Both the position numbers and the translations under genes were made by a program. Below the pieces are notes generated by a model that did not search any database, was not told the DNA's origin, and saw nothing but the letters and a program-made list of their open reading frames with translations. A DNA stretch of 64,000 bases from Clostridiales bacterium UBA1234 (lineage in GTDB: Bacteria; Bacillota; Clostridia; TANB77; UBA1234), in the NCBI GenBank assembly GCA_002308995.1, contig DBWQ01000009.1, forward strand, positions 12,852-76,851, given 5' to 3'. Shown here piece by piece: positions 3,875-62,192 of this stretch. Position 1 is the first letter of the stretch; each line of letters begins with the position of its first letter.

Positions 3875-4987
3875 ATGGATAATCAAAGAGAAAAAGTAGT
3901 TGTTAAAACAAGTATTATTAGTATTATTGCCAATATTATCTTGGCAAGTTTTAAAGCTTTTGTGGGGTTACTTGCCCATTCCATCGCGATTGTTTCGGAT
4001 GCGGTAAATAACTTAACGGATGCACTTTCGAGCATCATTACGATTGTAGGAACTAAGCTTGCTGGTAAGAAGCCAGATAAAAAGCATCCTTATGGTTATG
4101 GCAGAATTGAATATATGACATCACTCATTGTTTCGGGAATCGTGCTTTATGCAGGTATTACCGCACTAGTGGAGTCGGTGAAGAAAATCATTCATCCAGA
4201 GGAGGCAGATTACAGCACCGTCACGCTAATAATTATTGTAGCAGGTATTTTAGTAAAATTTGCTTTAGGCTTGTATGTGAAGAAAAAGGGCAAAGAAGTC
4301 AATTCTGATTCGCTTGTTGCCAGTGGTTCCGATGCCTTTAACGATGCAATTCTTTCGATTTCCGTTTTGGCATCTGCTATTATTTATTTACTATTCCATA
4401 TTAGCCTAGAAGCTTTTGTGGGTGCGATTTTGGGCATCTTTATTATCAAAGCGGGCATAGAATTAATTAGAGAATCTGTCGATAATTTGCTTGGCGTGCG
4501 CATTGAAAGTGGCCTTGCAAAGCAAATTAAAAAGGAAGTCATGAAAGAAGAAAATGTGCAAGGTGCTTTTGATTTAACGCTTCACGATTACGGTCCAGAC
4601 CAGTATTCTGGTTCCATCCATATCGAAGTGCCAGATACCCTAAACGTCGCACAAATTGATAAAATTTCAAGACGTATTACCAAAAATATTAAAGAAAAAT
4701 TTGGTGTAACGTTACATACCGTTGGTGTGTATTCGGCCAATACTAAAGATCAAAAACTAAAAAAGGTGCTTTCCGAAATGCACGATATCGTCTTCAAACA
4801 TGATGGTATTTTGCAAATGCACGGCTTTTATTTTGATGAGCAAGATAAAATGATTCGCTTTGATATTGTGATGGACTTCAAAGTACCAGATAGAGAAAAG
4901 GTTTGCCAAGAAATTTACGATGCAGTACAGAAAAAATATCCGGGTTACGATATTAGTATCAATATGGATATTGATATTAGCGATTAA
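3875..4987 (+). CDS. Cation diffusion facilitator (CDF) family metal efflux transporter.
   Basis: HPYGYGRIEY motif and six predicted TM helices. Start chosen at the ATG 5 nt after the AGGAGG (ORF track begins at 3830). Confidence 0.85.
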   Translation: MDNQREKVVVKTSIISIIANIILASFKAFVGLLAHSIAIVSDAVNNLTDALSSIITIVGTKLAGKKPDKKHPYGYGRIEYMTSLIVSGIVLYAGITALVESVKKIIHPEEADYSTVTLIIIVAGILVKFALGLYVKKKGKEVNSDSLVASGSDAFNDAILSISVLASAIIYLLFHISLEAFVGAILGIFIIKAGIELIRESVDNLLGVRIESGLAKQIKKEVMKEENVQGAFDLTLHDYGPDQYSGSIHIEVPDTLNVAQIDKISRRITKNIKEKFGVTLHTVGVYSANTKDQKLKKVLSEMHDIVFKHDGILQMHGFYFDEQDKMIRFDIVMDFKVPDREKVCQEIYDAVQKKYPGYDISINMDIDISD

Positions 4988-8505: not shown

Positions 8506-9540
8506 ATGAACAACTCAAAAAGGAACTCAATGCATTTTATGAAAAAAAGAATTGGAAGATTGTTTTTCGTTTTTTGTGTGATATTGGCTTTATCGACGAT
8601 TACTTTTGCTGAATCTGATAGTATTTCTTCTATACCATCTGAAGAGGAAAAAAAGGATGCAAGAGAAGATTGGTGGATAGAGGCGTTTGCCTTTCAAATT
8701 GAGGAGCCTAAAGCTGGTGAAAAACCTAAAAAAGATGCGAAAGCTTTGCATGAAGGATATCATGTGACCAAAGTGGTGTGGACTCCCGCTGATAGCTTTT
8801 TTATTCCTGGCAAAGAATATAAGGTAGAAATATTTTTTGACTTGGAACAGAAGTATTATTTGTTAAACAGTATTCCAACTACTATCAATAATAAAGTTGC
8901 CATTCAGCAAGGGAGAAAAGATGGATTTCTTCAAGATGATTCATTATGTGCAGAATACACCTTCCCAGTATTAGAAGGAAAACTAAATAGCATGACGTGG
9001 TCAAAAGCATCTAACTGGGCTATGGAAGAATTAATCAGAGCAAATGATATGGAATTAATCCCAGAAATATTAAAGCAAGAAGATTTAACAACCGCCATTA
9101 CTAGAAAGGAATTTGCTCACATAGCGGTTAGATTATGGGAATCAATCACAGGGAAAACAGCGTCTCCTGTGAAAAATACTCCTTTTACAGACTGTGATGA
9201 TATTGAGGTTTTAAAAGCATATCGCCTTGAAATCACCAAAGGAACGTCTGATACCACCTTTTCACCTGATGCATTGATCACAAGAGAACAAGTTGCTACC
9301 ATGATGACAAGAGCACTTCAAAAAGCAGGAATTAATACCTCAGTAAATAGGAACACGACAAACCTATTTGAAGATGATGAACAGCTTCATTCTTGGGGCA
9401 AGGAATCTGTTTACTTTATGGCAGAGATAGGAATCATCAAAGGAACAGGAGGTAACAATTTTGGAGCAAGTGGAAATGCCTCTAGAGAACAAGCTATCGT
9501 CATTAGTTTCAGAAGTGTTGAAAAATTCAAATTAAACTAG
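8506..9540 (+). CDS. Secreted SLH-domain (S-layer homology) cell-wall-anchored protein.
   Basis: N-terminal signal peptide. Three C-terminal SLH repeats with ITREQ(V/M)ATM and F.D...W motifs. It is a paralog of the C-termini of 18132-19589 and 22995-25007. Confidence 0.8.
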   Translation: MNNSKRNSMHFMKKRIGRLFFVFCVILALSTITFAESDSISSIPSEEEKKDAREDWWIEAFAFQIEEPKAGEKPKKDAKALHEGYHVTKVVWTPADSFFIPGKEYKVEIFFDLEQKYYLLNSIPTTINNKVAIQQGRKDGFLQDDSLCAEYTFPVLEGKLNSMTWSKASNWAMEELIRANDMELIPEILKQEDLTTAITRKEFAHIAVRLWESITGKTASPVKNTPFTDCDDIEVLKAYRLEITKGTSDTTFSPDALITREQVATMMTRALQKAGINTSVNRNTTNLFEDDEQLHSWGKESVYFMAEIGIIKGTGGNNFGASGNASREQAIVISFRSVEKFKLN

Positions 9541-18131: not shown

Positions 18132-19589
18132 ATGAAAATGGCACAGAAAGTTGTTTTTCTACTTACACTTGTAATGGCTATTTCAGCATTTTCGGTTTGC
18201 TTGGCAGCGGATAAAGTGATTAGACAAATCAAAGTTACCGTTCCGCCTGTTACGATTGGTGGCGCGAGAATTGAATCAGGTGAGATTAAAATTTCAAATA
18301 GCGGTAAGCATGCAGGTTCTACGTGGGTAAACCGCTCAGAACACAGGTTTATGGTGGATACTGAAACGTATGAAGAGGGAGTAGAGTACGAGCTTAGATT
18401 ATTTTTTGTTCCTGCAGATGGCTGTACTTTTGAAGATACGCCTAATGTCATTTTGAATGGAGAATCGGTTAAAGCAGAAAAGGTTGCAGAGCCAAATCAG
18501 TATAAGATTATTAAAGTGTTTACCCCTGTAGAGAAGGGTAGTGTAACACAAGAAGTAGAAGAGCCTGAAGAACAAGAGGAAGAAGAGGAAGAAGAACCAA
18601 AAGAAGCGCAAAGATTCTTAGAGTGGATGAAAATAAAGATTGAGGAACCTGTATCAGGGGAAGAATTACCTATCACGTACCAAATTAAAACCAATTTTGA
18701 TGAGAAGTATATCACCTATCGATTTTGCAAGCAAGAAGGTACCGTTTGCAAATGGAGTCCAGAAACAAGATATGTTCTTAACGAGCAAGAGTATAAATTT
18801 GGGTTTCAATTTAATATCAAAGCCTATAAAGCAGAATTAGCAGAGGATTTTAAAACTAGCATCAATGGGGAAGAAGTAGACTGGGAACGACACCATGAGG
18901 ATTTTGTTTCTTTCGGTACCGTAATTCCTGTCATTGGAAAAGTTTCTGAGGCAACTCCAACCCCTACTCCAACTCCAACACCTACCCCAACTCCAACCAC
19001 AACAAAAGAAAACGTAGAAGAAACAACAGAGGCACCAAAGAAAGTTACTTGGACCAAAGCTTCTAAATGGGCAGTGGAGGAGCTAAACAAAGCAAACGAA
19101 AAAGAATTAATTCCATCTGTATTTGAGCAAGTTGATTTAACCACCAATATTACTAGAAGAGAATTTGCACATGTAGTGGTAAAACTATATGAAAATCTTT
19201 CTGGTAGGGAAGTGCCAACCAACACAGATAACCCATTTAGCGATACGGATGATGAAGAGGTGCTTAAGGCATACCAGTTGGAAATCACCAAAGGCGTATC
19301 GGAGCACAGCTTTTCACCAGATGCCAAAATAACTAGAGAGCAAATGGCAACCATGCTTGCAAGAACCTTAGAAAAAGCAGGAATTGATACGACGGTAGAT
19401 TTAGCAAATGTAACCAAGTTTGCAGATGATGCCCAAATGCATGATTGGGGAAGAGAGGCTATTTACTACATGGCTAGCATTGATTTAATTAAGGGGGTAG
19501 GCAATAACAATTTTGGTGTTGTTGGCGATGCTTCGAAAGAGCAATCGATTGTCATTAGTGTAAGAAGTGCCAATCAGTTTGCTAAATAA
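18132..19589 (+). CDS. Secreted SLH-domain protein with a Glu-rich segment and a (TP)n linker.
   Basis: Signal peptide, EEQEEEEEEE, TPTPTPTPTPTP, and a C-terminal SLH triplet homologous to 8506-9540 and 22995-25007. Confidence 0.8.
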   Translation: MKMAQKVVFLLTLVMAISAFSVCLAADKVIRQIKVTVPPVTIGGARIESGEIKISNSGKHAGSTWVNRSEHRFMVDTETYEEGVEYELRLFFVPADGCTFEDTPNVILNGESVKAEKVAEPNQYKIIKVFTPVEKGSVTQEVEEPEEQEEEEEEEPKEAQRFLEWMKIKIEEPVSGEELPITYQIKTNFDEKYITYRFCKQEGTVCKWSPETRYVLNEQEYKFGFQFNIKAYKAELAEDFKTSINGEEVDWERHHEDFVSFGTVIPVIGKVSEATPTPTPTPTPTPTPTTTKENVEETTEAPKKVTWTKASKWAVEELNKANEKELIPSVFEQVDLTTNITRREFAHVVVKLYENLSGREVPTNTDNPFSDTDDEEVLKAYQLEITKGVSEHSFSPDAKITREQMATMLARTLEKAGIDTTVDLANVTKFADDAQMHDWGREAIYYMASIDLIKGVGNNNFGVVGDASKEQSIVISVRSANQFAK

Positions 19590-28057: not shown

Positions 28058-30007
28058 GTGAAAACAAAAGTAATTTTTGTAGTATTGGCAATTATCATTT
28101 TGATGGGTACTTTGGTAGGCTGCAATCATCGTTCAAAAGAAGAGGAATCTGTGAAACAAGTGAAAGTTGAAAAAATGACTACGCCAGTGGAAGGTACTTG
28201 GCAAGGTGAGGTAACTTTCCCAGATTGGAAAGGTTATGTGGATGATACGCTTGCCATGAATAGTATGTATAGTTTTGATGGAAGAAAAGGACAGGGAACC
28301 ATTTATTTAACTGTGGAACCTGAAGTAGAAAGCTTTGATTTGTTTATCAATCATGTGAAGGTAGATACGAAGGACATGAATGATGGCACTTTTCAAATTG
28401 ACATGAAAGCGCTTACAAAAACAGGAATGAATACGGTGCAAGTAAGCAATATTACTCCAACTAGTCTAGAAAAAGCAATTACATTAAAAGTACCTTATCC
28501 AACTGTTCAAGAAGGCACCTTAGAAGAAGTGGGGCTTAGCCAAAAGCCGTTGGAATTAATTAATAACATTATTACTACTGACGTTCAATATGGTTTCACA
28601 AGTGCACAACTTGCAGTGGTGAAAGACGGAAAGCTCGTGTATCAAAATGCATGGGGCAATGTAAATGCCTATACCAAAGAGGGGAAAAGAATAGAAAATG
28701 GCACGAAAGTAACCAATGATACGCTTTATGATTTAGCGTCTAACACCAAAATGTATGCAGTGGCTTATGGGATACAGTATTTGATGGATCAAGGAAAAAT
28801 GAAACTAGAAGATACCATTGTAGATATTATGGGGAGTGAATTTGTGGATAACACCATAGAAATTAAGTATTCATCGTGGGGAGAAAAATATCCAGGACTT
28901 TCACAAATCAAAGAATGGAAATCTAAAATTACCGTCAAAGATGTGCTAATGCACCAAGCAGGTTTCCCAGATAGCGGACATTACCACAACCAAAAATTTG
29001 ATGTGGTAAATCAAAAATTAGATGCTAGTATAGATAATTTGCTGTTTGTTGAAGATGCAACGAAAGAAAAAACACTAAGCGAAGGTATTTTTAAAACACC
29101 TCTGATTTATGAGCCAAGAACAAAAACGCTTTATTCCGATATAGATTATATGCTATTAGGTATGGTTATTGAAAAAATTACCCAAAAAGATTTAAACACC
29201 TTCTTAAAAGAAACTTATTGGGAGCCAATGGGCTTAACGCATATTACTTATAATCCACTTCAAAATGGCTTTGCCAAAGAAGACTGTGCAGCAACGGAGC
29301 TAAATGGCAACACGAGAGATGGTTTAGTGGATTTCCCACACATACGTAAAGATACTATTCAAGGAGAGGTACATGATGAAGAAGCGTATTACATGATGGA
29401 AGGCATTTCCGGCCATGCAGGACTATTTGCCAGTGCAACGGACCTTGCAAAACTTGCCTCTGTCATGCTAACAGGAGGCTATGGAAATCATAAATTCTTT
29501 AGCAAAAATATCCGTGATTTATTCATCGCTCCACAAAGTAGTAGTGCAATTAGTTACGGCATTGGTTGGTGGCGAGAAGCGGATGATAAACGTGTATGGT
29601 ATTTTGGCACACAGGCACCAGAAAGTACGGTGGGGCATCAAGGCTGGACAGGTACACTAACAATGATAGATTTTGAAAACAACATGGTGGTGGTATACTT
29701 AACAAATGCAATTAACACACCAATTGCCGATACCTCTAGTATAGATACTGCCAATGATTTTAGTGGCAGATATTACACATCTTCTACCTTAGGCTTTGTA
29801 CCACAAATCATCTATATGGGGCTTGATACTGACGAAAAAGAACTAGATAAAGCTCTAGCATCGCTGATAAAAGATATGGTAGCGGAGAAACAAAAACATG
29901 TAATAGGAAAAGAAAAGAATCGAGAAGTGCCATTCCCAGAAGAACACGCCATTAAGAAAGCAAAAAAGGCACTAGAAGATGTGAAAGAAAAATGGAACAC
30001 ATGGTGA
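28058..30007 (+). CDS. Lipoprotein serine hydrolase of the class C beta-lactamase / PBP4-like family with an N-terminal accessory domain.
   Basis: GTG start after AGAGGGGGAG. Lipobox LVGC. SxxK active-site motif (YDLASNTKMY). It is a paralog of 42688-44652 and shares FPDWKGYVDDTLAMN. Confidence 0.8.
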   Translation: MKTKVIFVVLAIIILMGTLVGCNHRSKEEESVKQVKVEKMTTPVEGTWQGEVTFPDWKGYVDDTLAMNSMYSFDGRKGQGTIYLTVEPEVESFDLFINHVKVDTKDMNDGTFQIDMKALTKTGMNTVQVSNITPTSLEKAITLKVPYPTVQEGTLEEVGLSQKPLELINNIITTDVQYGFTSAQLAVVKDGKLVYQNAWGNVNAYTKEGKRIENGTKVTNDTLYDLASNTKMYAVAYGIQYLMDQGKMKLEDTIVDIMGSEFVDNTIEIKYSSWGEKYPGLSQIKEWKSKITVKDVLMHQAGFPDSGHYHNQKFDVVNQKLDASIDNLLFVEDATKEKTLSEGIFKTPLIYEPRTKTLYSDIDYMLLGMVIEKITQKDLNTFLKETYWEPMGLTHITYNPLQNGFAKEDCAATELNGNTRDGLVDFPHIRKDTIQGEVHDEEAYYMMEGISGHAGLFASATDLAKLASVMLTGGYGNHKFFSKNIRDLFIAPQSSSAISYGIGWWREADDKRVWYFGTQAPESTVGHQGWTGTLTMIDFENNMVVVYLTNAINTPIADTSSIDTANDFSGRYYTSSTLGFVPQIIYMGLDTDEKELDKALASLIKDMVAEKQKHVIGKEKNREVPFPEEHAIKKAKKALEDVKEKWNTW

Positions 30008-31577: not shown

Positions 31578-31580
31578 AGA

Positions 31581-31688
31581 GGCCAAGAGCGGCCGAGAGG
31601 GACGCTCGATTTTGGTCGCACCACCCTAACGCAACCCCTTCTCGCACAAGGACTTTCAAAACACGTTAGCGACCAAAAGGGACAGACG
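31581..31688 (+). repeat. GC-rich structured repeat element, copy A (homologous to 35711-35831).
   Basis: About 75% identity with copy B. Shared nested stems: GAGCG..CGCTC, TTGGTCGC..GCGACCAA (8 bp) and CTAACG..CGTTAG, with a conserved tail CGACCAAAAGGGACAGAC. Confidence 0.55.
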
Positions 31689-31750
31689 TTGTGAAACGCT
31701 TCTGCGAGAACTATTTGAAAATTGAAAAAACAAGAAAAAAGGGGATAAAA

Positions 31751-32164
31751 ATGACTTCTATATTACTACTGTTGTCAGGTATTTTTTATGCGGTTCTTTG
31801 CATTTTTAGCATTGTAACTGGTATTATCTATATGACAGGAAAGAAAGAACTAAATCCGATAGAGTTATCTGATAGCTTTATGCAAAGGTTATCAGACGAA
31901 GAAAAGAAAAAAGCGTTTACCAAGAAAATGGGATTGGTTACGTTTATTGTGGGAGTAGCTCAAGGGATTACATCGTTTGCTATTTTGAAAGCAGGGACGA
32001 AGGCATTTTACGGAATTGCGTTAGGATTTACCATTTTTTCAATTGCTTCTGTTTCAGTAAAATTAAAAGGAAAGGTAAATGCATTTCCTATCATCAAATT
32101 TGTCTTTTATATGGCGATTTTAGTGATTCTTTTATTAGCACGAACGAGAGCGTTGTTCTTTTAA
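31751..32164 (+). CDS. Small membrane protein (four TM helices), function unknown.
   Basis: Start chosen at ATG 31751 after AAAAAGGGGA (the ORF track begins upstream, inside repeat A). Confidence 0.5.
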   Translation: MTSILLLLSGIFYAVLCIFSIVTGIIYMTGKKELNPIELSDSFMQRLSDEEKKKAFTKKMGLVTFIVGVAQGITSFAILKAGTKAFYGIALGFTIFSIASVSVKLKGKVNAFPIIKFVFYMAILVILLLARTRALFF

Positions 32165-32188
32165 AATAGGAGAATGAAGGAGGTTTTT

Positions 32189-32587
32189 ATGGGATTATTG
32201 GATGATTTAAAAAATTTGGGAAAAGATGTGTTGGATGGGCTTCAAACGATTTCAAAGGATGTGGCAGGAGAAGTATCTAAAATGGAGGAAAACAGACGTG
32301 CAGAAGTGGAAAAATCAAAAATTCTTCCAGAAAAATATGAGAGTTTTCCTCAATTTATGAAAACATATTCTAGCATGGAAGAGAAGAAGACTTTTCAGTA
32401 TCAAAGATGTACGATGGATTTTTACGGCGTGACAGAACAAGAGATAAAAGACTATCGTAACCAAATTTGGGAAGCAGGGTACATACAAAGTACGAATGTG
32501 CGTTATGATAAAGATAATACGTACATTATTGTGGATTATCATGAAGCAAGTCAAAAGTTAAATTTAGTATTTCATATTAAAAAATAA
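32189..32587 (+). CDS. Hypothetical protein.
   Basis: GAAGGAGG ribosome-binding site 6 nt upstream of the ATG. Confidence 0.5.
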   Translation: MGLLDDLKNLGKDVLDGLQTISKDVAGEVSKMEENRRAEVEKSKILPEKYESFPQFMKTYSSMEEKKTFQYQRCTMDFYGVTEQEIKDYRNQIWEAGYIQSTNVRYDKDNTYIIVDYHEASQKLNLVFHIKK

Positions 32588-32616
32588 AAGCGTCTTATTG
32601 ATGAAGGGGTATAAAA

Positions 32617-33675
32617 ATGAATTTGAGCTTTCAAAACTATATTGTGCAATTGATACATAGTTTGCCGCTTTGTATCATCTCTGTTTTGATGATTGCAGTG
32701 ATTTTAGTAAATGGTTGGACGGATGCGCCCAATGCGATTGCTACATGCGTATCCACAAGAAGTATCAAGCCGAAAAAAGCCATTATGATGGCAGCGATTT
32801 GCAACTTCTTAGGGGTACTGGTCATGACGCTGTTAAGTGCCCATGTTGCCGAAACGCTATTTCGTATTGCCAATTTTGGCAATAACTCACAAAGTGCGTT
32901 GATTGCGCTTTGCTCAGGACTTTTTGCAATTGTGATTTGGGCTGTACTTGCTTGGCTGTTTGGAATTCCAACCAGCGAAAGTCATGCGTTAATTGCAGGA
33001 ATCTCGGGGGCAGCAATTGCACTACAGCATGGCTTTTCTGGCATTAGCATAGCGGAGTGGAAAAAAGTATTATTTGGACTTGTTTTATCCGTTGTTTTGG
33101 GATTCGTTTTTGGATATATCATTACGAGAGTGATTCAAATGATATGTAGAAGAATGGATCGCAGGAGAACGCTTCCTGTGTTTAAAAAATTGCAAGTATT
33201 CAGTGGTGGCGCGATGGCATTCATGCATGGAGCACAGGATGGCCAAAAGTTTATGGGTATCTTTTTGTTGGGAGTAGCTCTTGCAGGTGGAAGCATGAGT
33301 GCAGGAAGTGTTGAAATTCCATTTTGGTTAATGCTTTTATGCTCAGTGGTAATGTCTCTTGGTACATCCATTGGAGGCTATAAAATCATCAAAACTGTGG
33401 GAATGAAAATGGTAAAACTAGAGCCGTATGAAGGAACTTCAGCCGATTTGGGAAGTGCACTATGTTTATTGTTTGCAACAATGTTTGGTATTCCTGTTAG
33501 TACCACACAAGTGAAAACAACGGCAATTATGGGAGTGGGAGCCTCTAAAAGGCTTTCTAATGTAAATTGGGACATTGTAAAAAATATGGGACTTGCATGG
33601 GTGATTACCTTCCCAGCATGTGGAATCTTAAGCTTCTTACTAACGAGTAGTTTTATGAAAATTTTTAGTATATAG
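32617..33675 (+). CDS. Inorganic phosphate transporter, PiT family.
   Basis: GWTDAPNAIAT (a variant of the GANDVANAIAT PiT signature), repeated in the second half (HGAQDGQK). Multiple TM helices. Confidence 0.8.
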   Translation: MNLSFQNYIVQLIHSLPLCIISVLMIAVILVNGWTDAPNAIATCVSTRSIKPKKAIMMAAICNFLGVLVMTLLSAHVAETLFRIANFGNNSQSALIALCSGLFAIVIWAVLAWLFGIPTSESHALIAGISGAAIALQHGFSGISIAEWKKVLFGLVLSVVLGFVFGYIITRVIQMICRRMDRRRTLPVFKKLQVFSGGAMAFMHGAQDGQKFMGIFLLGVALAGGSMSAGSVEIPFWLMLLCSVVMSLGTSIGGYKIIKTVGMKMVKLEPYEGTSADLGSALCLLFATMFGIPVSTTQVKTTAIMGVGASKRLSNVNWDIVKNMGLAWVITFPACGILSFLLTSSFMKIFSI

Positions 33676-33687
33676 GAGAGAAAAACG

Positions 33688-34308
33688 ATGAAAAACGAAG
33701 GACTAAATTATTATGATGAATTTATCAAAAATGCAGAGATTGCGCTAGAAATGGCGAGAATTTTAAAGGAGTACACGGCTTCTTTTGATTATCAAAAGTC
33801 AATTGAAATTGAAGAAAAGGTGCATAAGCTAGAAAACGATGCGGATAAAAACTTACATCGCACCCTAAACTTTTTAATCAAAGATTTTTTGCCACCATTT
33901 GAACGAGAGGATATTGTGATGCTTGCTAACAAAATGGATGATACGATTGATGAAATTGACGAAATAGTGATTGATTTAGATATTTTAAATGTGACAACGC
34001 TTCGACAAGACTTTCCAGATTTTATTGAGCTAATCTATCAGACCAGTTTAAAGCTAAAAGATATGATGGATTCTTTTAAAACAGCTAAAAAATATGAGGA
34101 TGTCAAATCTCTTATTGTGGATATTAATGCCATGGAGGAATCAGGGGATAGGTTATATGCGAGTGCCATTCGTAAATTATACCAGACAGAACAAAATGCC
34201 ATTGAAATATCAAAGTGGCATACCATTTATAATAACTTAGAGTCTTGTGTAGACATGTGTGAGGATATAGCTAATTGCGTGGATGAGATTTTATTGAAGA
34301 ATTCATAA
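33688..34308 (+). CDS. DUF47 (PhoU-like, PiT-associated) protein.
   Basis: Helical DUF47-type sequence in the usual pairing with a PiT gene. Confidence 0.7.
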   Translation: MKNEGLNYYDEFIKNAEIALEMARILKEYTASFDYQKSIEIEEKVHKLENDADKNLHRTLNFLIKDFLPPFEREDIVMLANKMDDTIDEIDEIVIDLDILNVTTLRQDFPDFIELIYQTSLKLKDMMDSFKTAKKYEDVKSLIVDINAMEESGDRLYASAIRKLYQTEQNAIEISKWHTIYNNLESCVDMCEDIANCVDEILLKNS

Positions 34309-34346
34309 AAAAATAGGAAACATGTTTTGCATGTTTCCTATTTTGA
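34309..34346. terminator. Bidirectional terminator between the convergent DUF47 and RT genes.
   Basis: AAAAAATAGGAAACATG tttt gCATGTTTCCTATTTT. Confidence 0.75.
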
Positions 34347-35537
34347 ATTTTGTGCATAGTATTCATTTACTAGTGACCTATACCCACATTTTTTGAGCAT
34401 GTCATAAGGAACTTTTTCATAATTTTTTTTGTTGTGTTTTCCGGTGACTAAATAGCGTTCTTGTTCTTGTAGGTATTGGTCGATGATTTTTAAACTCTCA
34501 GCAGTAGTGATCGTAGGGAAGAACCAGTACTTCCAAGAAAGCTCTTCTTTTTCAGCTTTCCCAAAAAACTTGCGATTATATTTACGATTCATGGCTTTTA
34601 AGGCAATCTCAGGAGTTGAGTTTTTCTTTAACATCCACCTTCTGATGCCACGAGCGCTTCTTCGAATTTTTCCTTTAATTTTTCGAAGAGAGTTTTTAGA
34701 TAAATCAATGGTTTTCTCATGAAACGAAAAGCCTAAAAACTCCCATTCATCGGTAGGAGCAAAGAAATATTCTTTTTCGTGGTTTACCTTTAAGTGATAT
34801 TTTTCTAAAAATTGCATCAGCATTTGCTGGTGCTTTTTTAATTCTTCTTCGTTATGACAAAACAAAATAATATCATCAGCATAGCGGGCGTATACTACAG
34901 GCTGATTCCAAAAGTATTCATCCATTTCTTTAATATAGTAATTGGCTAAAAATGCAGAAATAGGCGTACCTGCCATCACACCTTTTTGCTCCGTTAAAAG
35001 CTCACCATGATAGGTAGCGACATTACTTTGAAGCAAGGAAACAAATAGATTGAGGAGCTTCTGGTCAGTAATATCGTATTGTAAATGTGCGATGAGAATA
35101 GAGGTGTCAATACTATTAAAGTAGTTGGAAATATCCACTTTATAGCCATGCATTTTAGAAATATTTTTAATATTACTGATATTTCTAATTGCGGTTTTCA
35201 CACTGCTATTTTTACGAAAAGAATAAAGATTTGGCGCAAATAAATAGTCGTAATCATAAAGCAAATAAGAAAGAAGCTTAAGAGCCATCATTTCGTTTTT
35301 AGAAAAGGTATAAACAGTGCGCTTTTTACCAGAATGTCCTTTAGAAATTAAGTGCTTTTGTGGAATAGAAAAAGAGTAGGTTTCATTGGCGATTTGCGCG
35401 CAAATATCCACATACTCTTTTTTTTGAATAAACTCCTCTAACTCTTTTTTTTCCTTTTGAGGAACAAAATCTTTCTCCATTTTGTAGGCTAAAAATTCAT
35501 CCCATTTTTCTTTACTCGCAATATCCTCTAAAATCAT
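34338..35537 (-). CDS. Stand-alone reverse transcriptase (retron-like / defense-associated RT; not a group II intron maturase).
   Basis: RT motifs 1 to 7 are present: RTVYTFS, YSFRKNSS, YKVDISNYFNSI, GTPISAFLANYY, YARYADDIILFC and LGFSF. A VTG triplet (ERYLVTGKH) of the kind conserved in retron RTs is present. There is no maturase X or endonuclease domain. GGAGGA ribosome-binding site. Confidence 0.85.
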   Translation of the reverse strand: MILEDIASKEKWDEFLAYKMEKDFVPQKEKKELEEFIQKKEYVDICAQIANETYSFSIPQKHLISKGHSGKKRTVYTFSKNEMMALKLLSYLLYDYDYLFAPNLYSFRKNSSVKTAIRNISNIKNISKMHGYKVDISNYFNSIDTSILIAHLQYDITDQKLLNLFVSLLQSNVATYHGELLTEQKGVMAGTPISAFLANYYIKEMDEYFWNQPVVYARYADDIILFCHNEEELKKHQQMLMQFLEKYHLKVNHEKEYFFAPTDEWEFLGFSFHEKTIDLSKNSLRKIKGKIRRSARGIRRWMLKKNSTPEIALKAMNRKYNRKFFGKAEKEELSWKYWFFPTITTAESLKIIDQYLQEQERYLVTGKHNKKNYEKVPYDMLKKCGYRSLVNEYYAQNSK

Positions 35538-35540
35538 ACA

Positions 35541-35682
35541 TCCTCCATAAAAAGGGGAAAGAACAAATTGAGAATCGATTTATCGATTACGACAAGATCA
35601 TATATATTACAGCCACCTGCCAGACTATAACACGTAATATACGAAATCCCACTGCAGATGTTTCAAAAACATCTTTCCCCTT
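35541..35682 (-). ncRNA. Structured 5' leader / candidate msr-msd-like ncRNA of the RT, bracketed by an 11-bp perfect inverted repeat.
   Basis: On the transcribed strand, 5'-AAGGGGAAAGA (+35672-35682) pairs with 3'-UCUUUCCCCUU (+35552-35562), 3 nt before the ribosome-binding site. Internal hairpins include GATGTTT ttg AAACATC and CGTATATTACG. The transcription start is predicted at the first repeat. Confidence 0.4.
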
Positions 35683-35688
35683 ACGGCG

Positions 35689-35716
35689 ATTATATCATAT
35701 TCATCCTCACGGTCAA
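35689..35716 (-). promoter_or_regulatory. Strong sigma-A promoter for the RT leader.
   Basis: On the minus strand: TTGACC, a 16-nt spacer, then TGATATAAT (extended -10). Confidence 0.6.
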
Positions 35717-35831
35717 GAGCGACCAAGAGAGGCCGACCAAGAGGGACGCTCCTTTTTGGTCGCTAGCCAATTTTCAATTCCTTCTCTCAGAACACTTTCC
35801 GGTCCCTCTTTCCGACCAAAAGGGACAGACC
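35711..35831 (+). repeat. GC-rich structured repeat element, copy B (homologous to 31581-31688). It contains an internal 14-nt duplication.
   Basis: GGTCAAGAGCGACCAAGAGAGGCCGACCAAGAGGGACGCTCCTTTTTGGTCGC...CCGACCAAAAGGGACAGACC. Stems are conserved with compensatory changes relative to copy A. Confidence 0.55.
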
Positions 35832-35925
35832 TTCCAAACCTCTTGATGCTCTAGCTTTTTCTTGCTTGCTTTTTTAGAGTATTTTTGTTATACTTTCTTT
35901 GATTTTATTTTAAGGAGGTGTCGGT

Positions 35926-42687: not shown

Positions 42688-44652
42688 GTGAAGAGCTTGG
42701 AGTTGGTAATAATGAGTGTAGATGCAAATGGAGTAGAGGTAAGCAAAGTAAAACTTCCTAAGGGGGATTTTGAGGCGGAGCTTCAATTCCCAGATTGGAA
42801 AGGGTATGTAGATGATACGCTTGCCATGAATAATATGTATAGTTTTTTGGCATATCATAACCAAGGAACTTTATATGTCACCGTATCCAAAAAAGTGAAG
42901 AGTTTTGTGATGCTCATCAATCATCGCAAAATCAATACCAAAAAAATGCAAGATGGCACGTTTTTGGTGGATTTTTCAAGCATTGCTGTTGATGGCAAAA
43001 ATGTGTTGCAGATTAATAGCATTGTTCCGAGTACCATCAAAAATGGAATTAAGATATCCATTCCTTATCCTACGGTAATTGAGGGAAGTATCAAAGAATC
43101 TGGAATCAATAAGGATGCTTTTGATACTATAAATGATATCATTATGCAAGATATTAACCATGGTTTTACTAGTAGCCAACTTGCCATTGTTAAAAATGGA
43201 GCTTTGGTTTATCAAAATGCATGGGGTAAGGTAAATACTTATCTTCCAGATGGTAGTATAAATCCGAAAGCTAAAAAAGTGACGAATGAAACAATGTACG
43301 ATTTGGCGTCGGTTACCAAGATGTATTCGGTAATATATGCCGTTCAGTATTTGGTACAAAATGGCGTTTTAAGAATGGATGACAGAATTGCCGATTTGGT
43401 AGGCAAAGAATTCGTAGACAAGACCATCGAAATCATTTTTGATGGATATGATAAAATTCCATTAGAAAAAAACAAAGAGTGGAAGAAGAGGATTACTTTA
43501 AAAGATGTTTTGATGCATCGTGCTGGTTTCCCAAAGAGTGGACATTACCATATTGAATACTATGATGCCAAAAAACAACAACTAAGTAGCAAGATAAAAA
43601 ATGTTTTGTATGTACCTTATGAGGGAAAAGAAACGAAAAAGAAAACTTTGGTAGAGGGAATTTGTAAAACACCTCTTATGTATAAACCAAGAAGTAAAAC
43701 ATTATATTCTGATATTGATTATCAACTACTTGGATTTATTATTGAAAAGGTGACGAAAAAAGATTTAAATACTTTCTTAAAGGAAACCTTCTGGGATCCA
43801 CTTGGATTAGAACATATTACCTATTGTCCATTGGAACACGGCTTTACCAAAGAGGATTGTGCAGCAACAGAATTAAATGGCAACACGAGAGATGGGCAAA
43901 TTCACTTTGAGCAAATTCGTACAGAAACGATACAAGGTGAAGTTCACGATGAAGAAGCGTATTATACAATGGGTGGTGTTGCAGGGCATGCAGGGCTATT
44001 TGCCAGTGCCACAGATCTTGCGATTCTTTCCTCTTTGATGCTAACAGGTGGCATCGAAACGCAAAAATTCTTTGACCAAAATATCATTGATTATTTTACT
44101 TCGCCTCAAACACCATCAGTGAGTGGATGGGGAATTGGTTGGTGGCGTGTTGGTAATAATGACCGTGTATGGTATTTTGGATCACATGCGCCAAGTAACG
44201 CCATCGGTCATGAAGGCTGGACAGGTACGCTAACGATGATTGATTTTGAAAATCAAATGGTGCTTGTTTATTTGACGAATAGAAAGAACACTTTATTGAC
44301 AGATGCGCAAGATATTGAAAAAATTAGTCGCTTTAATGGGGATTGGTATACCTCGGCATCTCTTGGGTTTGTTCCTCAGCTTATTTATATGGGGCTTATG
44401 AAGTCATCAAAATCGAAAGAGGCGTTTGATTATTTGCTATATGACATGGCCTTCGAAAAGCAAAAATTAGTCCGTTCAGAGAAGAGAATTACACGAGAGC
44501 ATCCAATTTATGGGGCATGGTACGCTCTACTAGAGGTATGTGCTAAACGTGCTAAAAAGAGTGCAACTATGAAAAAGCTAACAGCAGAACTTATTAAAGA
44601 GTTAGATAAAGAAAAGGATAAAGAAGAAATCAAAATCATCAAGAGCTTATAG
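42688..44652 (+). CDS. Serine hydrolase (class C beta-lactamase / PBP4-like), paralog of 28058-30007, without an obvious signal peptide.
   Basis: SxxK motif YDLASVTKMY and shared N-terminal domain FPDWKGYVDDTLAMN. Start is uncertain (GTG 42688 or ATG 42712). Confidence 0.75.
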   Translation: MKSLELVIMSVDANGVEVSKVKLPKGDFEAELQFPDWKGYVDDTLAMNNMYSFLAYHNQGTLYVTVSKKVKSFVMLINHRKINTKKMQDGTFLVDFSSIAVDGKNVLQINSIVPSTIKNGIKISIPYPTVIEGSIKESGINKDAFDTINDIIMQDINHGFTSSQLAIVKNGALVYQNAWGKVNTYLPDGSINPKAKKVTNETMYDLASVTKMYSVIYAVQYLVQNGVLRMDDRIADLVGKEFVDKTIEIIFDGYDKIPLEKNKEWKKRITLKDVLMHRAGFPKSGHYHIEYYDAKKQQLSSKIKNVLYVPYEGKETKKKTLVEGICKTPLMYKPRSKTLYSDIDYQLLGFIIEKVTKKDLNTFLKETFWDPLGLEHITYCPLEHGFTKEDCAATELNGNTRDGQIHFEQIRTETIQGEVHDEEAYYTMGGVAGHAGLFASATDLAILSSLMLTGGIETQKFFDQNIIDYFTSPQTPSVSGWGIGWWRVGNNDRVWYFGSHAPSNAIGHEGWTGTLTMIDFENQMVLVYLTNRKNTLLTDAQDIEKISRFNGDWYTSASLGFVPQLIYMGLMKSSKSKEAFDYLLYDMAFEKQKLVRSEKRITREHPIYGAWYALLEVCAKRAKKSATMKKLTAELIKELDKEKDKEEIKIIKSL

Positions 44653-49799: not shown

Positions 49800-51213
49800 T
49801 TTAAAAAGTGTGATTCGAAAAATACTAGTGAAATTTCCGTCTTTTGGACATACTCTTGCCAATATCCAAATCAAAGAAAATGCATTGATTCAAACAGCTT
49901 GTACCAATGGACAAGTATTATACTATAATCCTAACTTCATTGATAGTTTGTCAGAAAGTCAAAAAGTGTTTTTATTATCGCATGAAATATGCCATGTGGA
50001 GCTAGAACACATGGAACGAGGAAAGGATAAAAACCCTAGATTATGGAACATTGCAACAGATGCGGTGATTAATGCCTATTTAGAGCATGCTGGATTAGAG
50101 CCCATTGAAGGATGTGTCCAAATGCCTGATGCCTATCAAATGCGAGCAGAAGATATGTATGATACACTACTAAAAGAAGCAGAAGCTTCTCAAGAAAAAC
50201 AAGATCAGTCAAATGAAGAAACATCATCCAATGAGCAAGAAGAAACTGCTCAGAAACAAAAAGAATCCACTCAGGAGCCAGAAGAAACTACTCAAAAGCA
50301 ACAAGAAACTATGAATGCAAAGGAGCAAGAAAAACTTGCCAAAAGAATTCAAGAATTGGAAGAAAAATATGGCAAAGGCCATGCCTCTCATGAAGAGTGG
50401 AAAGAGGCTCCTCACCATCAAGTACCTTCATCTGCCAAAGATGAAAAAGCATTTTTTGAAGAAAACGAAGCAGAAAAACAAAAAAAGCTAGAAGACATGA
50501 GAAAACAAATTATTGCAGAAAGTACCCAAGGAGTTGGACAGGAGAGTTTTGGTCAAACATTTAAAGTTGAAATGGAAGAAGAAAAAAAGAAGGTAGTAGA
50601 TTGGAAAAAAATCTTAAAAGCAACGCTAGTAGGCAATCAATATGATTGGCGTTTAAGCCATCGTGTGAGAAATGGTGTGGTGCCTTATGAACTAAAAAAA
50701 GTTCCTCATCCTGTCACAGAGATTTTGCTTGATACAAGTGGCTCCATCAGCGACGTACTTCTTAGAAACTTTTTGAATGAATGTATGGGTGTTTTAAAAA
50801 CTTCTCGTTTAAAAGTAGGTTGTTTTGATACTAGGTTTTATGGTTTTCATGAAATTCGCTCCAAAAGAGATATTGAAAATATGACTTTTGAAGGACGAGG
50901 AGGGACCGATTTTAATGCTGCAGTGAATGCATTCTCGAAAAGTGCGGATAATCGCATTGTCTTTACAGATGGCTGTGCAAATACCCCTGAAAAAACTTGC
51001 AGAGCCACATGGGTAATCTTTGATGATGGTGATAATTATTCGCGAGGTTATGCTGAGGAACTAAACCCTCCTGGAGGGAAAAAGATAATGATTCCTTACG
51101 ATGCCTACTGCGAATTGACACAAGAAAGCCCAAGAGAGTGTGATGATTATGATGATTATGATGACTATAATGATTATGATGACTATAATGATTATGATAC
51201 CCTTGCTGAGTAA
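49789..51213 (+). CDS. Putative metallopeptidase (DUF2201_N, HExxH) plus VWA-like domain protein; the usual partner of MoxR-type ATPases.
   Basis: FLLSHEICHVELEH (HExxH) and the VWA MIDAS motif ILLDTSGSIS ... GRGGTDF ... VFTDG. Asp/Tyr-rich C-terminal tail. Start at ATG 49789 after AAGGAG. Confidence 0.8.
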   Translation: MNTNLKSVIRKILVKFPSFGHTLANIQIKENALIQTACTNGQVLYYNPNFIDSLSESQKVFLLSHEICHVELEHMERGKDKNPRLWNIATDAVINAYLEHAGLEPIEGCVQMPDAYQMRAEDMYDTLLKEAEASQEKQDQSNEETSSNEQEETAQKQKESTQEPEETTQKQQETMNAKEQEKLAKRIQELEEKYGKGHASHEEWKEAPHHQVPSSAKDEKAFFEENEAEKQKKLEDMRKQIIAESTQGVGQESFGQTFKVEMEEEKKKVVDWKKILKATLVGNQYDWRLSHRVRNGVVPYELKKVPHPVTEILLDTSGSISDVLLRNFLNECMGVLKTSRLKVGCFDTRFYGFHEIRSKRDIENMTFEGRGGTDFNAAVNAFSKSADNRIVFTDGCANTPEKTCRATWVIFDDGDNYSRGYAEELNPPGGKKIMIPYDAYCELTQESPRECDDYDDYDDYNDYDDYNDYDTLAE

Positions 51214-51273
51214 AATGAAGAAAAAAATGCCCAAATGTTCGTCAAGACGTTCACATAAAATTCACAGTATTTT

Positions 51274-51315
51274 TAGCACTCTCTACTTGACTTTGCTAAT
51301 AAAAGTGGTATAACT
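51274..51315 (+). promoter_or_regulatory. hsp20 promoter overlapping a degenerate CIRCE-like inverted repeat.
   Basis: TTAGCACTC-N9-CTTTGCTAA (left arm perfect, right arm 6/9). TTGACT, a 16-nt spacer, then TATAAC. Confidence 0.35.
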
Positions 51316-51421
51316 ATAATTGTAATAAGAAAAAACATATATGCATACCCTACAAAAAGAGTATCAACATGTATGAACTTTCCTATTAAAGTAATCATAT
51401 ATTTTAAAAGGAGTGGTTTTT

Positions 51422-51844
51422 ATGTTGATGGTACCAAGAAAAAGAAACGAGTTTGATTTATTTAATGATTTTTTCGGAGGCGACGATTTCTTTACGAGAA
51501 GAGAAAGCACTATTATGAAGACAGATATTAAGGAAAAGAAGGATAGCTATGTCATCGAGATGGATCTTCCAGGCTACGAAAAAGAAAACATTAACCTAGA
51601 ACTTAAGGATGGATACCTAAATGTATCGGCTAAAGTTGAAAAAGAAGAAAAGAACGATGAAAATGAAAAGTTTGTACACAAAGAAAGATTCTATGGACAT
51701 TGTGCAAGAAGCTTTTATGTAGGTGAGCAAATCACAGAGGAAGACATTAAGGCTGAGTTTAAGAACGGTACCTTAAAGGTTAGTGTTCCAAAGAAAGAAG
51801 AGAAGAAAGAACTTCCAGAAGCAAAGCATATTCAAATTCAATAA
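51422..51844 (+). CDS. Hsp20 / alpha-crystallin family small heat shock protein.
   Basis: Alpha-crystallin domain (MDLPGYEKENINLELKDGYLNVSAK ... GTLKVSVPK). AAGGAG ribosome-binding site. Confidence 0.85.
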   Translation: MLMVPRKRNEFDLFNDFFGGDDFFTRRESTIMKTDIKEKKDSYVIEMDLPGYEKENINLELKDGYLNVSAKVEKEEKNDENEKFVHKERFYGHCARSFYVGEQITEEDIKAEFKNGTLKVSVPKKEEKKELPEAKHIQIQ

Positions 51845-51851
51845 AAAAGAA

Positions 51852-51917
51852 GGCTCCCTGAAAAGGGAGCTTTTTTTTTCGGCCAAAAAGGGACAACCTT
51901 TTTTGTCCGATTTTTTG
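51852..51917 (+). terminator. Tandem rho-independent terminators. The second carries a partial copy (C) of the GACCAAAAGGGACA repeat motif.
   Basis: GGCTCCCT gaaa AGGGAGC T9, then CGGCCAAAAAGGGACAACC ttttt TGTCCG T6. Confidence 0.7.
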
Positions 51918-59528: not shown

Positions 59529-62123
59529 TTATTTGACAATTAGTTCTGTTTTGTTAAAATCAACCGTTATTTCTGAGTTCGGCTTTACCTTTTCCTCCAA
59601 AATACTTCTGGCAATTAATGTTTCTAGCTTTCTTTGCACAAATCTCTTTAAAGGTCTTGCACCATAAACTGGGTCGTAGCCGTTATCGATTAAATAATCT
59701 TTGGCGCTATCTGTTAAGGTAAGGGATAGGTGCTTTTCCGTAAGTCTATTTTCTAAGTCTTTGATTAATAAGTCTAAAATCTTTCTAATTTGCTCTTTTT
59801 GTAATGGCTTGTAGAAGACGATTTCATCGAGCCTATTTAAAAATTCTGGTCGAAAACTTTGCTTTAATAGTTTTTCAACTTTTTCTTTGGCATCTGGTGA
59901 AATTTCTCCATTTTCTGTGATTCCTTCTAAGATGTAATCAGAGCCTAAGTTAGAAGTCAAGATAATAATCGTATTTTTAAAATCAACGGTTCTACCTTGA
60001 GAATCGGTGATTCTTCCGTCATCTAATACTTGAAGAAGTACGTTAAATACATCTGGATGGGCTTTTTCAATTTCATCAAATAGAATGACACTATATGGTT
60101 TTCTACGAACTGCCTCGGTAAGTTGACCGCCTTCTTCATAACCAACATACCCTGGAGGAGCTCCAATTAAACGAGAAACACTAAATTTCTCCATGTATTC
60201 CGACATATCAATTCTTACGATATTATGCTCATCATCAAATAAGCTTTCGGCAAGTGCTTTGGCAAGCTCTGTTTTACCAACACCTGTAGGACCTAAAAAT
60301 AAGAAGGAACCAATGGGTCTTTTCTCATCTTGTATGCCAGCGCGAGAGCGGATAATAGCTTCGGTAACTTTTTGGACAGCTTCGTCTTGACCAATCACTC
60401 TTTGATGTAGTATTTTATCTAAGTTTAAGATTTTATTTCTTTCACTTTCCATTAACTTTGTAACAGGAATGCCAGTCCATTTGGCAACGATTTTAGATAT
60501 TTCATCTTCAGTAACTTTGTTACGAAGTAGGGAAGGGGTGCTATCTTTTTTCTCTGCTTTTTCTTCTTCTTCTTTTAACTGTTTTTGAAGTTCTGGAAGA
60601 CGACCATATTTTAATTCTGCTGCCTTATCTAGTTTGTAATCACGTTCTGCGGCTTCCATTTGGGCGTTGACTGATTCAATTTCTTCACGAAGTTTTTGCA
60701 CCTTGCCAATCGAGTCTTTTTCACTTTCCCATTTTGCTTTTAAGGTGTTAAACTTATCTTTTAATTCTGCTTTTTCTTTTTGAATTTCCTCCAAACGCTT
60801 TAAGGAGAATTCATCATTTTCTTTCTTTAATGCCGTTTCTTCAATTTCGCATTGCATGATTTTATGAGAGATTTCATCAAGCTCTGTTGGCATGGATTCG
60901 AGTTCTGTTTTGATTAAAGCGCAGGCTTCATCAATTAAATCGATAGCTTTATCTGGTAGAAAACGATCGGTAATGTAACGATGGGAGAGAGTAGCGGCTG
61001 CAATGATGGCACTATCGGCAATTTTCACACCATGATAAACTTCATATCTTTCTTTTAGTCCTCTTAAAATAGAAATGGTATCTTCAACACTTGGTTCATC
61101 TACCAAGACTGGCTGGAACCTTCTTTCTAGCGCAGCATCTTTTTCAATATATTCACGATATTCATTTAAAGTGGTGGCACCAATGCAGTGAAGCTCTCCT
61201 CTGGCAAGCATTGGCTTTAAGATGTTTCCAGCATCCATGGCACCATCCGTTTTGCCAGCACCTACAATTAAATGAAGCTCATCTATAAACAAGATGATTT
61301 TTCCTTCACTCTTTTTCACTTCTTGTAGAACTGCTTTTAATCTCTCTTCAAATTCACCACGATACTTGGCACCGGCAACTAAGGCACCCATATCCAAAGA
61401 GAAAATGGTGCAATCTTTTAAGCCTTCTGGCACATCACCACGCACAATTCTAAGAGCCATACCTTCTGCAATCGCTGTTTTACCAACACCTGGCTCACCA
61501 ATTAGCACAGGATTATTTTTGGTTTTTCTGGAAAGAATACGAATCACATTTCGAATTTCATCATCTCTACCAATCACGGGATCTAGCTTTTGTTTTCTTG
61601 CCATATCCACTAAATCGGTACCATATTTTTTAAGGACATCGTAAGTGGATTCTGGGTTATCTGTGGTAACTCTCGCGTTGCCACGTACCTCTGCCAAAAC
61701 CTTCAAAAACTTTTCGTAGGTAATTTGGAAAGTTTTGAAAAGGTTTGCAAGTCCTTGGCTTGGTTTATTGATGATACCAAGCATAATGTGCTCCACTGAA
61801 ACATATTCGTCCTTCATTTTCTTCATCACTTTTTCGGCTTCCACAAGCGCCATATCCAAATCTCCAGAAACATAAATGTTGCCACTTTGTCTTGGCGTAC
61901 CTACAATGCGAGCTTTTTGACTTACTAATTGTTCCACTTGACTTTCAAATGTATCCGGCACATTCATTTTGTGAAGAAGTTCCTTAATTAAACTATCTTC
62001 CCCTCTTAATAAAGCCAAAAGTACATGCTCCTGACCAACCTCCGTATGTTGATACTCGATAGCAATGTTTTGTGCCTCTTGCACTGCCTCGATTGATTTT
62101 TGAGTAAATTGATTCAAATTCAT
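59529..62123 (-). CDS. clpB: ATP-dependent chaperone ClpB.
   Basis: Two AAA modules (GEPGVGKT ... and GPTGVGKTE), a long middle coiled-coil, and the N-terminal Clp_N repeats. Start at the ATG after AAAGGAGG. Confidence 0.95.
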   Translation of the reverse strand: MNLNQFTQKSIEAVQEAQNIAIEYQHTEVGQEHVLLALLRGEDSLIKELLHKMNVPDTFESQVEQLVSQKARIVGTPRQSGNIYVSGDLDMALVEAEKVMKKMKDEYVSVEHIMLGIINKPSQGLANLFKTFQITYEKFLKVLAEVRGNARVTTDNPESTYDVLKKYGTDLVDMARKQKLDPVIGRDDEIRNVIRILSRKTKNNPVLIGEPGVGKTAIAEGMALRIVRGDVPEGLKDCTIFSLDMGALVAGAKYRGEFEERLKAVLQEVKKSEGKIILFIDELHLIVGAGKTDGAMDAGNILKPMLARGELHCIGATTLNEYREYIEKDAALERRFQPVLVDEPSVEDTISILRGLKERYEVYHGVKIADSAIIAAATLSHRYITDRFLPDKAIDLIDEACALIKTELESMPTELDEISHKIMQCEIEETALKKENDEFSLKRLEEIQKEKAELKDKFNTLKAKWESEKDSIGKVQKLREEIESVNAQMEAAERDYKLDKAAELKYGRLPELQKQLKEEEEKAEKKDSTPSLLRNKVTEDEISKIVAKWTGIPVTKLMESERNKILNLDKILHQRVIGQDEAVQKVTEAIIRSRAGIQDEKRPIGSFLFLGPTGVGKTELAKALAESLFDDEHNIVRIDMSEYMEKFSVSRLIGAPPGYVGYEEGGQLTEAVRRKPYSVILFDEIEKAHPDVFNVLLQVLDDGRITDSQGRTVDFKNTIIILTSNLGSDYILEGITENGEISPDAKEKVEKLLKQSFRPEFLNRLDEIVFYKPLQKEQIRKILDLLIKDLENRLTEKHLSLTLTDSAKDYLIDNGYDPVYGARPLKRFVQRKLETLIARSILEEKVKPNSEITVDFNKTELIVK

Positions 62124-62165
62124 CACATAACCTCCTTTATCATTTTCCAAAAGTAGTATCTACTT

Positions 62166-62192
62166 TTAGCACTCTTTATATTCGACTGCTAA
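62166..62192. promoter_or_regulatory. CIRCE element (HrcA operator) in the clpB leader.
   Basis: TTAGCACTC-N9-GACTGCTAA matches TTAGCACTC-N9-GAGTGCTAA at 17/18 positions and lies between the clpB promoter and ribosome-binding site. Confidence 0.7.

Follow-up and report, generated by a model that had tools for sequence, protein, structure and literature searches.

The pneumococcal BOX elements, RUP and the Correia elements of Neisseria are modular bacterial repeats akin to miniature inverted-repeat transposable elements (MITEs). They are non-coding and intergenic, span some 100-200 nt, combine a variable number of short modules, have a strong predicted secondary structure and may adjoin promoters. 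Palindrome-associated transposable elements (PATEs) of the IS200/IS605 group, moved by a Y1 transposase, have subterminal hairpins, insert between genes and leave no target-site duplication (see also PMC6006769). Repetitive extragenic palindromic (REP) sequences, together with REP doublets forming hairpins (REPINs), are imperfect palindromes of 20-40 nt, with a GC content above that of their surroundings. They are expected in tens to hundreds of copies per genome, along with a cognate Y1 transposase gene (RAYT, REP-associated tyrosine transposase) that the repeats flank. According to a REP survey, the super-families carry a GTAG or a CGTC tag and, by its abstract, tagged REPs lie mainly in Proteobacteria (PMC3733652); neither 'Firmicutes' nor 'Clostridi' occurs in that text. 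We have explored a 64,000-nt stretch of DNA from Clostridiales bacterium UBA1234 (assembly GCA_002308995.1, contig DBWQ01000009.1, positions 12,852 to 76,851), the window in what follows, where two GC-rich sequences, copy A (31581-31688) and copy B (35711-35831), bracket a block of genes that comprises a reverse transcriptase (RT). With a probability of roughly 60%, we see A and B as members of an apparently undescribed REP/REPIN- or MITE-like family, whose elements are short GC-rich palindromes that code for nothing. The repeat is unrelated to the UG26 RT and to its RT-5 leader, which lie between the two copies.

That A and B are direct repeats had been claimed, at about 75% identity, in an earlier note made from the letters of the window alone. 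Pairwise alignment bears this out, with 79-80% column identity. The two longest blocks common to A and B, CGACCAAAAGGGACAGAC and GAGGGACGCTCnnTTTTGGTCGC, are found nowhere else in the window, even when up to three mismatches are allowed, and none of 100 window shuffles gave two matches to either block. The contrast with an AT-rich background, also put forward in the note, is real: GC content is 57% in A and 53% in B, as compared to 36% for the whole window. Copy A (plus strand, 108 nt, profile E = 3.9e-29) sits in the spacer 31578-31750, past the stop codon of a DUF1963 gene (31577) and ahead of the start of a gene for a 137-amino-acid membrane protein (31751), whose named homologues belong to Solobacterium sp., Erysipelotrichaceae and Lachnospiraceae metagenome-assembled genomes (MAGs). 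Copy B (plus strand, 121 nt) sits in the spacer 35538-35925, between the divergent RT/RT-5 promoter and the promoter of a NUDIX gene. No coding potential was found in the repeat, and a search of the window with the A/B profile gave no additional copy.

Comparison of A and B with a further host copy, with an ortholog in a related organism and with relatives in other genomes – all described below – identifies a 14-nt unit, CGACCAAnnGGGAC, as the building block of the repeat. A first unit, U1, and an inverted one, U2, make a hairpin of up to 13 bp; a third, U3, follows downstream in the orientation of U1 and is itself followed by AGAC, so that U2 has two possible pairing partners, U1 or U3. In the host copies some 45-50 nt separate the hairpin from U3, and extra tandem units may be present at the 5' end. 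The U1/U2 hairpin is best seen in copy B, where CGACCAAGAGGGA-CGC-TCCTTTTTGGTCG (35734-35762, plus strand) makes 13 pairs around a 3-nt loop; it appears in the RNA fold, has a DNA fold at -7.5 kcal/mol (z = -3.4) and matches the family hairpin profile at E = 2.3e-9. In copy A, the corresponding CGGCCGAGAGGGAC / GCTCGATTTTGGTCG (31590-31618, plus strand; E = 2.7e-6) has decayed: it pairs only with G-T or G-U wobbles, and the full hairpin is not formed in the DNA fold (z = -0.5). U3 and its tail, CGACCAAAAGGGAC AGAC in copy A (31670-31687, plus strand), constitute an exact 18-mer common to B; in A, U3 pairs with U2 over 10 bp, as TTTTGGTCGC/GCGACCAAAA, in both the centroid and the consensus folds. 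Copy B has a second hairpin, GTCCCTCTTT-CCGACC-AAAAGGGAC (35802-35830, plus strand), which contains its own U3 and tail (35813-35830) and shows up in the minus-strand fold. The 14-nt internal duplication that the note had seen in B is indeed there: the 14 extra bases, an alignment gap at 35716-35729 with no counterpart in A, amount to one additional unit, CGACCAAGAG (35720-35729, plus strand).

The repeat is dispersed, in the host first. Copy C, CGACCAAGAGGGACGCTCCATTTTGGT, is on the plus strand; in window coordinates it would fall at about 64195-64235, some 200 nt past the window end and 28 kb beyond B, upstream of a divergent gene for a small acid-soluble protein (SASP). It was read at positions 41-1 of L052-L054, contigs of 3-4 kb found via the last window protein, the first one having given no record. 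These three independent assemblies of the same organism all stop at the same base inside copy C, a common break point which is the mark of a repeat, since assemblers typically break at repeats. About 33 kb of the host thus contain no fewer than three copies, as read from the window and short flanks; all are solitary, intergenic and in plus orientation.

Outside the host lineage, the exact 18-mer matched 6 of 185,579 species genomes, a set that does not include the host. Five of these matches are due to chance – that in L011, for example, was discarded as coding sequence in an Actinomyces MAG – and one, L013, from a Clostridia MAG with 27% GC, is a true relative: there CGACCAATGGGGACGCCCCTTTTTGGTCG is followed by aagcc, then by CGACCAAAAGGGACAGAC, so that the full hairpin precedes the 18-mer by 5 nt; some 180 nt away there is another copy in inverted orientation. 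The hairpin pattern matched 36 metagenome loci, about half of which had to be rejected as chance matches in what appears, read by eye, to be the gene of ribosomal protein L14 (...GTRIFGP...). About 19 are family loci, in contigs with 26-33% GC, several of them labelled human gut. Their palindromes read (TTT)CGCCCAATAGGGACGCCCCTTTTTGGKCG(AAA); the hairpin of copy B and the element found at L043 between accB and fabZ have 27 of 29 bases in common. Named proteins encoded by the L025 and L043 contigs carry the labels Clostridia bacterium and Clostridium sp. The family is spread across low-GC Firmicutes of gut and rumen, a rumen origin of the host being inferred from run and sample names. The hairpin pattern had no match in viral contigs, copy B none in either the plasmid or the phage collection, and the diagnostic sequence strings of the repeat matched no paper in the literature. 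Likeness to CtsR operators or to Pho boxes was considered and dropped, for want of a match worth testing. The further copies which the note had proposed to look for do exist, as copy C in the host lineage, as an A-type ortholog in a related organism, and as compact relatives in other Clostridia.

The genomic contexts of these relatives are unrelated. Family members occupy the pgk-tpiA, groES-groEL and accB-fabZ spacers, follow polC or precede addA; flanking proteins were read by eye, and the names of GroEL, Pgk and FabZ were confirmed beyond that reading. All located copies are extragenic, often between co-directional genes. They may precede a promoter, stand between it and the ribosome-binding site, or follow a stop codon, in both orientations, even in a single spacer. 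Unrelated housekeeping contexts of this kind are those shown by REPs. Besides solitary copies, inverted doublets were found at L013, L029, L017, L040, L047 and L025. Those of L013, L029 and L047 surround an AT-rich core, with a span that varies between samples (129, 156 and 221 nt), and in the gut relatives it is the hairpin or the three-unit module that makes the inverted ends, 29-52 nt long, about such a core. Sites may be filled or empty: in L017, L040 and L047 the pgk-tpiA spacer contains the element and measures about 190 nt, and in L055-L058, four strains with a pgk gene in the same 90% identity cluster, it is 10 nt long and has none. Of the interpretations offered in the earlier note, a small MITE-like repeat family is accordingly the one that has gained substance, with more host copies, a counterpart in front of the corresponding gene of a related genome, compact relatives elsewhere and this polymorphism. 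Two separate observations belong to the same loci. L056, from a gut Clostridia strain, carries in its gap-pgk spacer, at about 2850-2980, some 130 nt of unrelated inserted DNA whose ends are inverted (GTTGAAAAATAATTACAATTTTGG...); absent from L055 and L057, this is a different small mobile element. In L039, an open reading frame of 172 codons with no family assigned (3972-4490) begins about 240 nt past a solitary family hairpin, downstream of polC.

How does the repeat compare with the systems described above? As with REPs and REPINs, its members are GC-rich imperfect palindromes in the 20-40 nt range, extragenic, often located between co-directional genes of one operon, present as singlets and, outside the host, as inverted doublets, with sequence variants specific to each species; the active form of REPs would be a hairpin in single-stranded DNA or in RNA, as we propose for the repeat. 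There are differences, however. The repeat is devoid of an unpaired GTAG or CGTC tag: its 5' end is CG(A/C/G/T)C or CAAC, and family members begin with CGAC, CGGC, CGCC, CAAC or TGCC, all paired, CGTC being found only in diverged copies at L016. No RAYT is known for it, the hosts are low-GC Firmicutes, copy number is low so far, and U3 and the extra 45-50 nt found in the host subfamily have no REP counterpart. Modularity brings it close to BOX, RUP and Correia elements, B having one unit more than A and doublet cores being variable, and so do its length, its intergenic non-coding nature, its predicted structure and the proximity of a promoter. Yet A and B lack terminal inverted repeats, a visible target duplication or an identified parent insertion sequence, and we know of no sequence similarity between the repeat and any of the three. 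Hairpins, intergenic insertion and the lack of target-site duplication are reminiscent of PATEs, but neither a TnpA gene, nor a conserved cleavage tetranucleotide, nor a defined target sequence has been identified for the repeat.

A different understanding of copy A comes from L059, a related metagenome contig where an orthologous A-type element (1257-1349) precedes the same membrane-protein gene, the product of which is 83% identical to that of the window (81% by tblastn). The element retains blocks of 7-12 bases identical to copy A in a spacer that is otherwise unalignable; it has the orientation of the gene that follows, 60-110 nt downstream, and the gene upstream differs from the DUF1963 gene of the window. 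Furthermore, U2 has a C there in place of a G, and the bases of U1 and U3 that can pair with it have each gone from C to G (CGACC becoming CGACG, GGTCG becoming CCGTCG), so that pairing is kept. This concerted change is suggestive, as a single event in three sequences that is statistically not strong. It would suit a conserved, non-mobile cis-acting regulatory element of the host, with 14-nt units, direct and inverted, bound by one protein with affinity for DNA or RNA, or with an RNA switch between U1:U2 and U2:U3 in the leader of the following gene. Retention at the same gene, joint change of the three units – as expected from a co-evolving binding protein or from alternative helices –, the common orientation of A, B and C (for A, B and the L059 element, that of the following gene) and G-U pairs that favour a transcript of the plus strand all speak for it. 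Against it, genes adjacent to the family have no pathway in common (glycolysis, chaperonins, fatty-acid synthesis, polC, addA, NUDIX, SASP); position with respect to promoter, ribosome-binding site and stop codon is variable, with both orientations in one spacer; the pgk-tpiA element is missing from related strains; most homologues of the membrane protein at 69-74% identity have no element, in a different gene order; and copy B is upstream of promoter-like sequences on both strands, hence probably untranscribed if both are real. We consider regulation in cis a serious alternative, though an unlikely one. No empty site for copy A was found, and no DUF1963 homologue is above 53% identity.

Statistics of covariation, too, are weak for the regulatory interpretation. 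The earlier note had proposed that nested stems are conserved between A and B by compensatory changes, and this is not supported. The outer helix TTTTGGTCG/CGACCAAAA is invariant between the two copies, so that it is uninformative on structure; the GAGCG/CGCTC stem shows one wobble and one break; 4 of the 5 pairs of the 'inner stem' of copy A are broken in B; and the single double change in the proposed stems is equalled by 240 of 500 shuffles. Single-sequence folds of A and B differ and have an unremarkable stability (plus-strand z = -0.5 and minus-strand z = -0.2 for A; -2.65 and -1.2, respectively, for B), while the A/B consensus fold retains only the invariant helix and two tiny stems. When three sequences including L059 are considered, three double changes affect U1:U2 and one U2:U3, a result reached by 164 of 500 shuffles. 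Among 14 distinct family hairpins, pairing is found in 82% of cells and covariation is modest, two pairs displaying double changes (20 of 500 shuffles reach this), in a sample drawn with patterns taken from copy B, the composition of which is therefore biased by the search. This pairing and the joint change in L059 show a hairpin that is maintained, which also counts for the REP/MITE-like family. The 35-nt gut version of the hairpin has z = -6.5. Rfam scans of the window, of the copy A region and of the family loci gave no family match to the repeat, their output being RT-5, a SAM riboswitch, tRNA and sub-threshold matches of the L047 doublet to plant miRNA hairpins. What remains of the cis-regulatory RNA family envisaged in the note is the concerted change in the L059 ortholog; the absence of an Rfam match, the inconsistent position and orientation, and the weak covariation go the other way.

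We now come to the block itself. From A to B it encodes the 137-amino-acid membrane protein, a small protein without a Pfam match, PiT and DUF47, then, from the minus strand, the 399-amino-acid RT (34338-35537). The latter is of the UG26 class (PADLOC E = 3.7e-152), a member of Class 2 of the UG/Abi RTs for which prediction of a role in defence was reported to be inconclusive (PMC9226505). Directly upstream is an Rfam RT-5 element (RF03026; 35560-35663, minus strand, 59 bits), and further upstream the best promoter match of the region, near to consensus (minus strand, 35716-35689: TTGACC, 16 nt, extended TATAAT). As the note had it, copy B overlaps the -35 box of this promoter, TTGACC (35716-35711, minus strand), with its left end. 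Copy B is thus upstream of the RT promoter, in the same spacer as RT-5 yet outside the RT-5 transcript. It is also upstream of the NUDIX-side promoter-like sequence, which was read by eye, the RT-side one being a tool match; should both be genuine, B would probably stay untranscribed. Quite apart from the repeat, the UG26 RT is a stand-alone and very widespread gene: it has 3050 homologues at E <= 1e-30, and identity ranges from 56% to 84% among the 120 best listed. Between the convergent DUF47 and RT genes, a perfect 16-bp hairpin (34310-34344) is likely to be a two-way terminator.

Two direct repeats that physically bracket a group of genes may evoke attachment (att)-like boundaries of an inserted island, here of 4 kb, carrying the membrane protein, PiT, DUF47 and RT, and the note had listed this among its possibilities. 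The closest relative of the RT, at L004 (84% identity, with about 80% at the nucleotide level), speaks otherwise. RT, leader and promoter are conserved there down to the -35 hexamer, beyond which unrelated AT-rich sequence replaces copy B; DUF47 is still beside RT, with one extra ATP-grasp gene in between, and the NUDIX gene, 93% identical, is split from RT by a paralogous 221-amino-acid gene. The comparison with relatives that the note had proposed for the A-B block thus finds the RT/DUF47 synteny without copy B. Because of this synteny, because the GC content of the block equals that of its flanks and because none of its five products has a Pfam match to integrase or recombinase families, the block is no island with A and B as its edges. 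That an A-type copy goes with a different upstream gene in L059, that copy C is found 28 kb further on, and that RT homologues live in unrelated contexts without the repeat further make this alternative very improbable.

Could the repeat be a part of the retroelement? It might be the template and variable repeats (TR/VR) of something like a diversity-generating retroelement (DGR), repeats flanking a retron-like system, or a second non-coding RNA of the UG26 RT, and the contact of copy B with the promoter of an RT that has a structured RT-5 leader invites the question. RT homologues provide an answer: in L004, L005 and L008, whose gene contexts are unrelated, RT-5 lies directly upstream of an RT that is 84%, 71% and 64% identical, respectively, and none of the RT homologue loci L004-L009 has the repeat. 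RT-5 is separate from the repeat, although it shares the spacer of copy B; present at every UG26 RT examined, it appears to be a leader or non-coding RNA of these enzymes. Moreover, copy B is upstream of the promoter and not in the RT-5 transcript, copy A begins after the stop codon of its upstream gene, and the RT, being UG26-class, is neither a DGR nor a retron RT. The 35 mismatches between A and B are of all substitution kinds and are not restricted to the adenines of one copy, on which ground adenine mutagenesis of the DGR type is rejected. A retroelement part is, in our view, extremely improbable.

Several features weigh against a dispersed REP/MITE-like family all the same. Transposase families have no Pfam match among the 30 window proteins, no search having been made elsewhere. 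No duplicated flank is seen at A, B, L013, L029 or L047; A and B, solitary and direct, lack terminal inverted repeats and do not make inverted doublets. Only three host copies were seen, in the window and its short flanks. Between filled and empty pgk-tpiA spacers, differences extend outside the element, and no clean junction was seen; the rearrangement of genes on the NUDIX side blurs the comparison with L004; the family hairpin sample is biased by the search, as mentioned above. Finally, the persistence of copy A at the same gene in a second species, better conserved than the spacer around it, fits a host function equally well.

If A and B nonetheless belong to a dispersed REP/MITE-like family, as we favour, the repeat would be a non-autonomous mobile element, moved in trans by some enzyme that recognises hairpins. 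Hairpin ends and the lack of a visible target duplication would make a single-strand transposase of the Y1/HUH type the natural candidate. Copies that persist would stay palindromic since the hairpin – in single-stranded DNA or in transcript RNA – would be what gets recognised. Copy A would be transcribed within an operon and form a stem-loop in the transcript, and copy B would stay in untranscribed spacer DNA, abutting the RT promoter. One may go further and propose that the three-unit element is a Firmicute counterpart of the proteobacterial REP/RAYT system, with pairing of either U1:U2 or U2:U3 and a co-evolving recogniser, single-strand transposase or host protein. Such a recogniser would explain the joint change of U1, U2 and U3 in the related species, and some copies, A for example, would then have persisted over tens of millions of years as functional parts of operon leaders; we hold this extension to be quite unlikely and offer it as speculation.

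What does this tell us about genomes of this kind? The repeats can be cleared as marks of a mobile island or as parts of an RT system, and the UG26 RT with its RT-5 leader stands alone. To the known repeats is added a REP/MITE-like family of uncultured low-GC Firmicutes from gut and rumen, where such elements have been little catalogued. Repeats of this sort break assemblies, three of them here, and their presence within core operons such as pgk-tpiA and groES-groEL may affect mRNA processing. The concerted change in three units provides a small and testable clue to the recogniser of the element.

The third partial copy of the repeat that the earlier note had placed at 51880-51908, as a terminator after hsp20, is not confirmed as a copy. 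It scores E = 2.5 against the A/B profile, and the short unit pattern has four sites in the window, three of them within A and B, and the extra one is at chance level because 0.59 sites are expected by chance. It lies in a terminator-like hairpin, the second of two in succession past hsp20 (51853-51911), which holds CGGCCAAAAAGGGAC and resembles one repeat unit at chance level. The window also has operators of the CIRCE type (controlling inverted repeat of chaperone expression), TTAGCACTC-N9-GAGTGCTAA, at 51273-51299 and 62166-62192, with three and one mismatches respectively and none found in shuffles; the first precedes the hsp20 gene (51413-51844), the second a minus-strand gene of 873 codons (59529-62150). 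A DUF2201 metallopeptidase-like gene contains, at 51136-51198, a series of 9-nt tandem repeats (GATTATGAT and variants), which would encode an Asp/Tyr-rich repeat. Two beta-lactamase-family paralogs, 28058-30007 and 42688-44652, in direct orientation and 14.6 kb apart, flank the region studied here; they are 74-75% identical over long stretches, one 60-nt stretch reaching 95%. Three paralogs coding for SLH-domain surface proteins (8506-9540, 18132-19589 and 22995-25007) share 64-71% nucleotide identity over their 3' parts.

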